Source: Candidatus Acetothermia bacterium
GTDB lineage: Bacteria; Bipolaricaulota; Bipolaricaulia; RBG-16-55-9; JANLFV01
Reading direction: 5' to 3'
Length of the DNA stretch: 64,000 bases
Assembly: GCA_024653345.1 (NCBI GenBank)
Contig: JANLFV010000007.1
Location: 4,605 to 68,604 of the forward strand
Below, one piece after another: positions 20,068-23,035 of the stretch; position 1 is the stretch's first letter, and each line of letters begins with the position of its first letter. The notes beneath the pieces were generated by a model. The model was not told the origin of the DNA, did no database searches, and saw nothing but the letters and a program-made list of their open reading frames with translations. The position numbers and the translations under genes are program-made.

Positions 20068-21879
20068 TCACTGCCCCAGCGCGTTGGTGTCCAGGAACTC
20101 CTTAACGTTATTGAAAGCATTGAAGAACAACGGCGTCCCAGCAAACGAGAGCGGAGAGACCGGGCCGATAGTCATAAATGAATATTCTCTCGTTGCAATG
20201 TCAAACGATGAATGCGGGTCACGGAACAACTGATACAGGTCAAGGGCCTTACTACGCCCACCTACCAGCTCGCTTAACGCTTTGAACTCGGCCCCCATTC
20301 CCAGGCCAAAACCGAAGAAGAAGATGCGTAGTTGCTCCAAGATCTCGCGATGTAGACTGGAGAGGGTTTGGCTGATGAACAGCCACCCGACCCCGTACTT
20401 GCGCGTGGTGCGCGCTGCATCAATCAAGATACTCCGCACCGCTTTCTTCTCCTCACTTTCAGGATCTTCACGGGGTGCAAGGCGGTGCGCTTCATCAATT
20501 AGCACCAGTGTATTGAGACTACGGTTCTGTTTATAGGCATATTCTGCCGCCGTGCGAATACCTTCCAACAATCGTTTGATGACCAGCGCTTGTATCATCT
20601 CATTCCAGAACAATGGAGTACTTTGAGGCTGGGATTGACCTCCACCAAAAAGAGGGAGCGTATTCAAACTGCCAGTGGTATGGGTTGCCTGTTCCACCGA
20701 TAAGTCTATCACAACAAGGGGCCGTTGCGCTTGATCGGGATCAAACAAACCCGCCAGTAACCGTTCCACTTTTTGTGCGCCCTGCCGGTCTTCACGAAAC
20801 AGTTGCGTGACAGGAAGCCAATAGTGGGTGAAGAAGAAATCGCAATCCGCTTGGTCATACATGGACTGAAATCGGGCTCGCGAGCCTTCCGTACGATAAA
20901 AGACCTTTTGTACATTCTCATCGCCAAGTAGCCCCCAGGCACGGTCGAAGGATTCACGGGTATGAAGGTCCTTTAGCGTAACTTTGGCACGCTGTAAGCG
21001 ATCAGCCAATGTGCTTGCTGCCAACTGTCGGTTTTCCCCCTTGGGAATGCTCAATTGTTCAAAGAAAGGCGACTCATAGAGGATTTGAGCAAACAGATCC
21101 CACCGGTCCAGCACCAAATCCCTCACACCGTGCACCTGAACCGGTTTCTTGAGCCTGTTCAAGACGTCTTTCATCGGCAACCGAAATTCACCTGGAACCG
21201 CGTCACCTCTAGCTTCTTTGGCAAATTCACCCTGAGGATCAATGACCAGAAGTGCCATCTTGGGATAGCGGGCATAGGCCAACAGAATCATCTTGGCGAG
21301 CACCGACTTGCCAGAGCCGGTTTTGCCAAAGATGCCAAGATGGTAGGCCTCTCCAGCGCCTTGTGGCCCAGTATCGAAATGCTTGAACTACAGCGGCAGG
21401 AGGGGCTTTGAGCCATAGACATGCCCCAGGTAGAAAAGCTGGTCGCGGTAGGGCGAGAGTAATTCAGATAAAACAGCATCATTGACAAGATGAATGGGCG
21501 TGCCCGTAGCCGGGACAGTGCCCAAGATGCTGGGACGATAGCCATTGGAACCGGCGGAGAAGACAGCACTGATCGTCATCTCTCCCAGATGGGTATCCTG
21601 GCGCTCGCTGACTGTATCTACCCGCCCGCGCTGACGGATCAGGCTACGCATCGTGGGGTCTTCGTGCCAGACGTTGCGCAGTTTCACCTCGGTGATCTGC
21701 CCCAGCGCGTAGTGGGAAAGGCCATCCTGGTGATAGCGGAACAAAGCCAGTTCCCCTACCAGCTTCTTGTTGACGGCTCCGGCCAGGATATCCAGCGCCA
21801 TTTCACTGGTAGAGGATGGCGACCCTACCACGCCAATCCGTTCCGCCTCGTCTACAAGTTGATCAAGACTCTTCTGCAT
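20068..21879 (-). pseudogene. herA: HerA-like (FtsK/HerA superfamily, DUF87-type) ATPase interrupted by one in-frame TAG at 21388-21390
   Basis: Track ORFs 21388-21960 and 20068-21303 are in the same frame. Own translation across the gap gives GSKPLLPL-TAG-FKHFDTGPQGAGEAYHLGIFGKTGSGKSVLAKM (Walker A). Walker B is LVLIDEAHRL, followed by RKYGVGWLFISQ. The N-terminus has a barrel-like IGVVGSPSSTSE. The likely start MQKSLDQ at 21879 has an AGGAG SD. Confidence 0.75.
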
Positions 21880-21883
21880 AGGA

Positions 21884-23035
21884 TCATACTCCTGATTCAG
21901 TGCGATAACCATGTAGGCCCAAAAAGACCTCGCTGATGTTTCCCTGGTAGCTTTCAGCAATGTGCTGGCTGGTTACTTGTCGGAACGTAGGGACAGCCTT
22001 AGGCAAGTGCTTTACCATCCGGTCCGCCATATAGAGAGGATAGGGTTCCATCACTGCAGGTGCACCACATTGATGGCGAATCCCGTGGAGCGCCGTGGCC
22101 AAGCGCGCCTGATTTTCGGCCACTGCACGGCTCATTTCTACTCGGAGTGCTGGAAGCCAAGGATAGGGCCGATAGTAAAGAGCCTGAATTTCGCCCAACG
22201 ATGAGACGATCTTCTCTGCTACGCGCTCGGCTGTTGCTCTCGTTGCAGTCTCAAGTGGATTCAGATTCAAGTGCCAGGGTTCGGTTGGTTGCTGCAGCAA
22301 CCTTGGGCTTGTGTATTCGCCTGGTTCCAAGAGAAAGCCCAAAAGACCACGGTCGTCGTATTTATCGGGCCATCCCATCCTTTGCCCAATTTCTCTTCTG
22401 GTCGTGTACTTGGGTACAGCCAGCCAACAACGGTCACTTCGAGTTGAAGCCAGTATTGTTAAGTATGCTTCCAGAAATGAGATTGCCTGGTCAAGGAAAC
22501 GGGCTGTAGTATGCAGATGTAAAGCATCCCGACTTGTATTCAATGCCTAGTTGAAGTAGATGAGAGGAGTGGTGAGAGACCCGTCCAGGAAGACAACCTC
22601 ATGCGGCGCTTGCGCGGCAAGCTCCAACTCCATGCCAATCATCAGGGCACGTAGGATCGTGCCGGTTTCGGCCTCGTGAGCTTCTGTCTCTACCCAAACA
22701 AGATGACGGGGTTCTGGCCAATGGCGCGTTTCCGAAGGTGGCGTGAGGCCTTCCACTGCGACGGCAGCCGCGGCGACCAGGTCGCTAGCCAGCAGTCGCT
22801 CCACGGCATAGGAGCCATCTATACCACAGGTCGTCGGGATGGGCATATAGGGAAGTTCGGCGTCACGATGAAGCAGGCCTGCTCGTTCAAGATTTGCTCG
22901 CCATTCCTGGCGACGCGCGCGTACTTGCTCAAAGTCGTCTAACAACTTCTGGCTGAGATCCTCCGTGCGTTTGAGGACCTCGTCCACTAACGCAGCAGGG
23001 AGTTCACCAAAGGGGCGTTCTACAGATTCCATCAT
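21884..23035 (-). pseudogene. nurA: NurA-like nuclease interrupted by one in-frame TAG at 22547-22549
   Basis: Track ORFs 22547-23035 and 21884-22543 are in the same frame (PLIYFN-TAG-ALNTSRD). NurA-type motifs are CGIDGSYA, VVFLDGSL and EPYPLYMADRMVK. The combined length of ~383 codons fits bacterial NurA. Confidence 0.65.

Follow-up and report, generated by a model that had tools for sequence, protein, structure and literature searches.

NurA and HerA form a DNA end-resection complex of archaea and some bacteria (PMC5715905, PMC9960219, PMC12977600), HerA-type ATPases also occur in the defence systems SIR2-HerA and DUF4297-HerA (PMC11472057, PMC11514289, PMC11291478), and integron cassettes that carry defence genes have been described (bioRxiv 10.1101/2024.07.02.601686). 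All of these are pertinent to a locus in a stretch of 64,000 nucleotides from a Candidatus Acetothermia bacterium (GenBank assembly GCA_024653345.1, contig JANLFV010000007.1, positions 4,605 to 68,604 of the forward strand; 'the window' in what follows, with positions counted from its first letter). There an intact gene for DruA is followed by genes for a NurA-like nuclease and a HerA-like ATPase, and each of the latter two is interrupted by a single in-frame TAG. The original prediction, made from the letters of the window, had suggested aligning both proteins with intact homologues. In alignments of the top 120 homologues for each gene the TAG of the NurA-like gene falls in a column that is Gln in 120 of 120 (CAG or CAA, with CAG in the nearest relatives) and that of the HerA-like gene in one that is Trp in 119 of 120 (TGG). 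That the replaced codons stand for different amino acids, and that a single transition separates each from TAG, argues for two independent nonsense mutations and against codon reassignment. Probably, then, two recent independent C:G>T:A nonsense substitutions have struck a horizontally acquired cassette, and what is seen is ordinary inactivation, not an altered code.

How does the trio compare with its described namesakes? The NurA-like gene (21884-23035, minus strand, as are all three) has 383 codons and is now a pseudogene, cut after residue 162 just past the FLDGS motif. By sequence it is only marginally a NurA: Pfam NurA (PF09376) gives 20.0 bits where the cut-off is 21, and there is no NCBIfam match and no meaningful PDB sequence match, while several close homologues have precomputed PF09376 matches and the NCBI name NurA. 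An AF2 model of moderate quality (pLDDT 66.5) has NurA structures as all of its top 9 Foldseek PDB matches, weak as these are (E from 7e-3 to 0.24, TM ~0.3). The HerA-like ATPase gene (20068-21879), 603 codons and likewise now a pseudogene, matches the DUF87/HerA central domain of Pfam (PF01935) at 43 bits (cut-off 23.2) and has Walker A (GKTGSGKS) and Walker B (LVLIDEAH) motifs; no NCBIfam equivalog cut-off is reached and the HerA models of PADLOC match weakly, with E down to 3e-15. The DruA gene (23032-24168) is intact, with 378 codons if translation starts at the TTG at 24168 and a product of 402 aa if it starts at an in-frame ATG at 24240, and its TGA overlaps the ATG of the NurA-like gene in the sequence ATGA. 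Its product is recognized clearly (Pfam E = 6e-78, PADLOC E = 5e-97) as a member of the DUF4338 family (Pfam PF14236), which has a GNAT-like fold (PMC10853773).

In having a nuclease gene adjoining that of a HerA/FtsK-type ATPase, with DUF87, Walker A and Walker B, and with NurA as the best nuclease fold, the pair resembles the NurA-HerA complex. It differs in being very distant (NurA below the Pfam cut-off, the lack of a PDB sequence match and the TM of ~0.3), in the absence of Mre11/Rad50 neighbours, and in that the pair is always preceded by DruA and resides on a mobile cassette. SIR2-HerA and DUF4297-HerA, like it, combine a HerA-type ATPase and an effector enzyme in one small mobile operon, and the HerA models of PADLOC match weakly, but here the effector is NurA-like, PADLOC has no model for it, and there is the extra gene for DruA. 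Druantia type I reportedly comprises DruA to DruE, in a composition ascribed to Doron et al. 2018. The first gene of the trio is a clear DruA/DUF4338, whereas its partners are NurA and HerA; neither in the window nor in ~150 related loci was any of DruB-E found, the signature helicase DruE included, so this is not a Druantia system. Searchable literature yielded no description of a DruA-NurA-HerA module, nor of an integron-borne NurA/HerA cassette. The triad is thus a concrete candidate for testing the role of DruA (DUF4338) alongside a nuclease-ATPase pair.

Translation of the minus strand agrees with what the original prediction had read there, namely one in-frame TAG in each of the two genes, no frameshift and no other stop. 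From 23035 to 21881 the NurA-like frame runs through 383 codons with a single internal stop (...FLDGSLTTPLIYFN-stop-ALNTSRD...). From 21960 to 20065 the HerA-like frame also has just one (...GSKPLLPL-stop-FKHFDTGPQGAGEAYHLGIFGKTGSGKS...), which lies 20 codons upstream of Walker A at 21327-21304, the distance that had been estimated. With tblastn, intact homologues align to each gene throughout in a single frame, meeting one stop and no frameshift, and the DruA gene upstream proves free of stops. The amber codon of the NurA-like gene, at 22549-22547, is codon 163, where a Gln codon CAG has become TAG by C>T on the coding strand; that of the HerA-like gene, at 21390-21388, is codon 164 when counting starts at the ATG at 21879, and column 166 in the codon alignment, where a Trp codon TGG has become TAG by G>A on the coding strand.

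The homologues available for establishing the ancestral state number more than 2000 for the NurA-like and more than 3000 for the HerA-like protein, with best identities of 95-96%. The coding-strand base at 22549 is C in 11 of the 11 near relatives covering the site and that at 21389 is G in 12 of 12. Outgroups polarise the changes as CAG>TAG and TGG>TAG, both of them C:G>T:A transitions, and the two sense codons named beforehand as lying one substitution away are indeed those replaced. A stop standing at a conserved sense codon from which one substitution separates it, the mark of a nonsense pseudogene, was found in both genes. Among ~150 related loci from genomes and metagenomes none has a stop at either site, no relative examined has an in-frame TAG in NurA or HerA, and, as far as the sequences of all these relatives go, the TAG alleles appear private to this lineage. 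Damage of any kind is confined to 3 of the ~150 loci, one strongly decayed (L086), one with a frameshift in HerA (L115) and one with GGA>TGA in HerA (L157). An apparent stop in the DruA of two others (L013 and L103) turned out to be a terminus 4 residues shorter and not damage.

Could TAG be sense here, decoded by a suppressor tRNA, by recoding of the pyrrolysine type or in the manner of an amber-recoded donor, with both proteins being made full-length? Phages with recoded TAG and suppressor-tRNA systems exist, and the locus resembles the former in having in-frame TAGs in otherwise intact genes of a foreign element: there are just two in-frame stops, both are TAG, the motifs on either side are intact, there is no further damage, and the search for a tRNA with a CUA anticodon was confined to the window. 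Against this, reassignment is expected to give many TAGs at positions of one consistent amino acid, and there are only two, in place of two different invariant residues, Q and W. The lack of in-frame TAG in relatives means that the donor pool uses the standard code. The family is also nearly absent from viral contigs (4 matches, at ~61% identity) and from plasmids (matches below 35% identity). The host itself uses TAG as a terminator, as had been pointed out: in a crude set of 52 putative host genes in the window (~16,000 codons), 15 (~29%) end in TAG, including the open reading frame (ORF) ending at 458-460, and there is no internal TAG. None of the 7 tRNAs that ARAGORN finds in the window has a CUA anticodon, the same count and outcome as reported earlier. 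Sense decoding is hence regarded as highly improbable, the suggestion of an amber-recoded donor or of read-through is not sustained, and there is no ground for assuming that this lineage recodes TAG, its amber codons being ordinary in themselves. A scan for other in-frame TAGs in host genes was swamped by long spurious frames in the high-GC DNA, and the coding-like cases in it were only adjacent genes sharing one frame.

Nor does the identity of the two stops carry information, though two of the same type in neighbouring genes had been thought unusual. When all single-base changes in both ancestral genes are enumerated, stops result from ~3.3% of them, and TAG makes up 47% of these stops; the probability of both being TAG is 0.22, and that of both being of the same type, whichever it is, 0.36.

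Another way of retaining function would be for the genes to be split by design, with programmed or regulated termination-reinitiation yielding functional proteins in two pieces. The NurA-like gene offers a possible restart codon 4 nt past the stop (TAG-GCA-TTG). In the HerA-like gene, however, no ATG, GTG or TTG occurs in frame from the TAG to the P-loop of Walker A. The break in the NurA-like protein would lie inside a predicted helix that follows directly on the catalytic FLDGS strand in the model, and among the relatives no homologue is split at either position, an arrangement that the original prediction had named as one that would speak against it. We attach very little credence to split genes. 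In the absence of suppression the NurA-like product would lack its last 221 residues and the HerA-like product would end ~20 codons short of Walker A, so that on the evidence of the sequence both would be null, with DruA and the attC site described below untouched.

Are the TAGs real? A contig of the Joint Genome Institute (JGI), Ga0417229_000198 (80,572 nt; sample 3300038743), is not identical to the window and has both TAGs: it encodes a 162-aa NurA N-piece and a 174-aa HerA N-piece ending at them, with no difference from the window at either site. The two differ at one flank position (12777) and, within HerA at 20619-20736, by 13 substitutions and a 3-nt indel. An independent metagenome-assembled genome (MAG) of the same population, GCA_029907235.1, has contigs covering window 22857-33725 (JARYMH010000012) and 21228-11197 (JARYMH010000019), whose flanks are near-identical to the window, with 1 difference in ~18 kb and no indels. 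Exact look-ups matched only these two assemblies, and neither the 402-aa DruA nor the 406-aa HerA C-piece had a match, in the latter case because the window and the JGI contig differ in the variable loop. A metagenome scan for the same strain elsewhere gave nothing closer than 90%.

Random sequencing or consensus error at both positions, one of the explanations put forward at the outset, is conceivable in so far as the record is a single metagenome-derived sequence. It has become very unlikely: with flanks that disagree at ~1 site per 18 kb and show no indels, two stop-creating errors within 3 kb have P ~1e-5, and both TAGs recur in the second, non-identical assembly. As for the variable loop itself (20619-20736), the three assemblies of the same population differ there by 12-13 clustered substitutions and a 3-nt indel (TLPLFGGGQSQPQSTP versus ELPPGGGQSLTQTAP) with the frame kept, a pattern suggestive of recombination or of exchanged alleles in a hypervariable loop.

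If the stops are real, their age can be gauged from the substitutions around them. The ratio of nonsynonymous to synonymous change (dN/dS) relative to the nearest relative (L002) is 0.10 for the NurA-like and 0.06 for the HerA-like gene, comparable to that of intact pairs. Synonymous changes number 45 on the window branch and 49 on its intact sister; missense changes number 11 and 19 respectively, with the 2 stops in addition on the window branch. Neither gene gives a signal of relaxed selection, be it a raised dN/dS, extra lesions or a missense excess. With no missense excess the neutral phase has to have been very short, and from the absence of any such signal we infer that both hits are recent. 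Of the explanations offered originally, recent silencing by two nonsense hits is the best supported, by the Q and W codons and by the purifying-selection statistics; the part of it that invoked selection on account of toxicity is our inference as much as it was that of the original prediction.

Both mutated cytosines lie in the context AAC[C]A (mutated base bracketed), on the coding strand in NurA (22541-22553) and on the complementary strand in HerA (21384-21396). A signature of hypermutation or of a deaminase was considered and rejected, the spectrum of the branch being balanced between T>C/A>G and C>T/G>A and the three matching free positions having a post hoc probability of ~1/64. The NurA-like site was formerly AAC-CAG-GCA and so contained CCAGG, of which the inner C mutated. 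Amber hotspots at 5-methylcytosine (5mC) in CCAGG were reportedly encountered in lacI (work attributed to Coulondre et al. 1978). As with classical amber mutations, both lesions are single C:G>T:A transitions to TAG and the NurA site is CCAGG. A 5mC hotspot of the Dcm type does not fit the HerA site (GAACCACAG, complementary strand), which is not CCWGG, and the balanced substitution spectrum of the branch is a further departure from such hotspots.

What weighs against two successive nonsense hits in one resident cassette deserves to be set out together. Given no more than 2-4 neutral substitutions, the probability of a second nonsense hit by pure neutral decay is ~0.07-0.13, so that simple sequential decay fits only moderately well; the value is mildly low and, without being decisive, leaves room for selected loss of both genes or for stops that reside on different haplotypes. 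The contigs of GCA_029907235.1 end inside the cassette, at 22857 and 21228, with the 1.6-kb piece that holds both TAGs unresolved there, which suggests graph ambiguity, as would arise if the community held more than one variant of the cassette. Between assemblies, differences are ~50-150-fold denser in the cassette (Fisher P = 2e-18 and 3e-9), pointing to co-existing variants and a possible mosaic consensus. The two TAG-bearing assemblies may share a sampling site or reads, the TAGs are read from consensus assemblies and may lie on separate molecules, and the scan for tRNA-CUA covers the window.

Most of these points converge on one alternative, that the TAG variants are real and the contig stitches together co-existing cassette variants. 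In that case the stops would lie on separate molecules from each other or from the Bipolaricaulota flanks, and the copy resident there might have a single lesion or none. A cassette family common to many members of the community at 80-96% amino acid identity, with many contigs ending at cassette edges, lends itself to such stitching, as do the breaks in the third assembly and the clustering of differences just given. It is countered by two non-identical full-length assemblies having both TAGs in the same flanks, by the TAG alleles being private to this lineage, and by the segment matching the nearest relative evenly (92-98% identity) throughout, without sign of a foreign block near the TAGs. 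Stitching of this kind is therefore considered unlikely, though haplotype mixing remains the main caveat.

If both substitutions are in the one resident copy, the course of events may be pictured as follows. A cassette of DruA, NurA, HerA and attC was acquired horizontally and stands alone between plsY and pyrC of the Bipolaricaulota chromosome; CAG>TAG in the NurA-like and TGG>TAG in the HerA-like gene created ordinary amber stops; with translation ending after residue 162 of the NurA-like protein and before Walker A of the HerA-like one, the nuclease-translocase pair would be dead, with DruA and attC intact. Presumably the acquired module brought no benefit, or became a burden when expressed from a promoter outside it, so that its loss was tolerated or favoured. 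A more far-reaching version can be ventured only tentatively and we doubt it more than we believe it: that DruA-NurA-HerA is an undescribed anti-invader or selfish three-gene cassette circulating among thermophiles of more than 12 phyla, which here landed outside an integron behind a host-side promoter and had its effector, costly or autoimmune, knocked out by selection with DruA spared. The locus also provides a natural loss-of-function allele, which hints at a fitness cost.

The context of the TAGs is more notable than the TAGs themselves, for a conserved triad is packaged as a 4.2-kb cassette of integron type. The acquired segment (19981-24243, minus strand) is ~4.2 kb long, sharp at its right end, at the attC, and uncertain at its left. 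Between ~20.0 and ~24.2 kb it has 53-55% GC as compared with ~66% in the flanks and genome. Homology to other loci stops sharply at 19981-20048 on the right; on the left it stops at 24167-24177, or for BLAST homology at 24172-24177, with weak similarity to the 5' untranslated region (UTR) of the cassette continuing to ~24243. An attC-type site of 82 nt (19981-20062, minus strand) comes directly after the HerA-like stop, and runs from R'' GCCTAAC, through an L''/L' stem with one extrahelical base, to R' GTTGGGC. Its boxes agree with R'' RYYYAAC and R' GTTRRRY, with CTAAC and GTT invariant in 11 aligned sites, among which the centre varies in length from 64 to 83 nt. Their consensus fold (RNAalifold) has the R''/R' and L''/L' stems and one bulged base, with 16 pairs of which 5 show compensatory changes; support rests on this alignment, since the fold of the single sequence is no better than that of shuffles (z = -1.1). 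A covariance model built from the 11 sites has one significant match in the window, the site at 19981-20062 itself, at 102 bits.

In relatives, attC sites form same-strand arrays, with six sites in L089, three in L097 and several in each of L093, L107, L101, L010 and L049. Several loci have an attC on each side of the triad, and neighbouring ORFs end a few nt before an attC of their own. The order DruA-NurA-HerA is constant in the ~150 related loci. More than a dozen phyla have the triad at 80-96% protein identity, and it is often part of an attC array. Copies at up to 96% identity come from Planctomycetota, Chloroflexota, Cyanobacteria, Acidobacteriota, Armatimonadota, Bipolaricaulota and others, and among the organisms with close copies are Thermogutta (Planctomycetota), Pyrinomonas (Acidobacteriota), Synechococcales, Gloeomargarita and many Chloroflexota, as well as Armatimonadota, Thermaceae, Bacillota and one Thermoproteota MAG. 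By these sequence features the island is an integron-type gene cassette, DruA-NurA-HerA with a 3' attC, a nature that the original prediction had not recognized. This explains why so many of its homologues are met on contigs of ~4-5 kb, why its genes are promoterless and closely packed, and how it comes to be shared so widely.

Like integron cassettes generally, then, it is a compact promoterless block ending in an imperfect palindrome with R''/R' and L''/L' stems and an extrahelical base, and the same triad stands bracketed by attC in the same-strand ORF-attC arrays of relatives and is spread across phyla. Unlike the typical cassette of one gene it is much larger, with three genes in 4.2 kb. 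The window contains a single attC and no array, and a tyrosine-recombinase motif scan of the window and of related loci, a crude one and applied to contigs that were mostly short, brought up no integron integrase. Two recombinases in related loci were rejected as IntI, being Xer-like and below IntI cut-offs, the one (L064) in an xerC-hslVU context and the other (L129) Xer-like. Lone cassettes outside an integron go by the IntegronFinder terms SALIN and CALIN. Unlike cassettes in arrays, the window copy is alone at a non-attC site, and its left end is atypical and diverged.

The insertion site is marked by two host genes, plsY (19197-19802, minus strand), which adjoins pyrC in related Bipolaricaulia, and on the other side a pyrC-like dihydroorotase gene (24448-25725, plus strand). 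The flanking dihydroorotase and 12 kb of synteny identify the host as Candidatus Bipolaricaulota (Acetothermia). Three Bipolaricaulia MAGs (L169 at 3107-3227, L170 and L171) have plsY and pyrC as direct neighbours, separated by 121 nt that contain neither cassette nor attC, so that here the cassette was inserted into an intergenic region.

Over ~400 nt at the left end (23843-24243, the 5' UTR and the first ~110 DruA codons) identity is 70-76% to every relative, and elsewhere it is 92-98% to L002/L003, a contrast that makes the cassette a mosaic. The canonical 5' end of a cassette (TTRRRY and a conserved ribosome-binding region) is not recognizable there. A promoter-like site (24266-24295, minus strand; TTGACG-18-TG-TATACT) is followed by a Shine-Dalgarno-like GGAGAGGG and the ATG at 24240. 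It was the one match of the promoter scan, no more than chance would give for the region, and its position alone is suggestive, so the cassette may be expressed from it, that is, from outside.

Two relatives depart from the usual arrangement of the triad. In a Desulfovirgula MAG (L080) it is rearranged, the DruA homologue being downstream of HerA rather than upstream of NurA. In the isolate Pyrinomonas methylaliphatogenes K22 (L010, 4400-9900) DruA and the first 41 NurA codons are missing; HerA is intact at 94% identity, the attC is present, and upstream are two further attC-like sites and an RRXRR/HNH-like ORF. Elsewhere in the window lie a tRNA cluster of Ser-CGA, Arg-GCG and Ser-GGA (14971-15304) and a tRNA-Ile/tRNA-Ala pair of the kind typical of the spacer of an rRNA operon (36635-36814).

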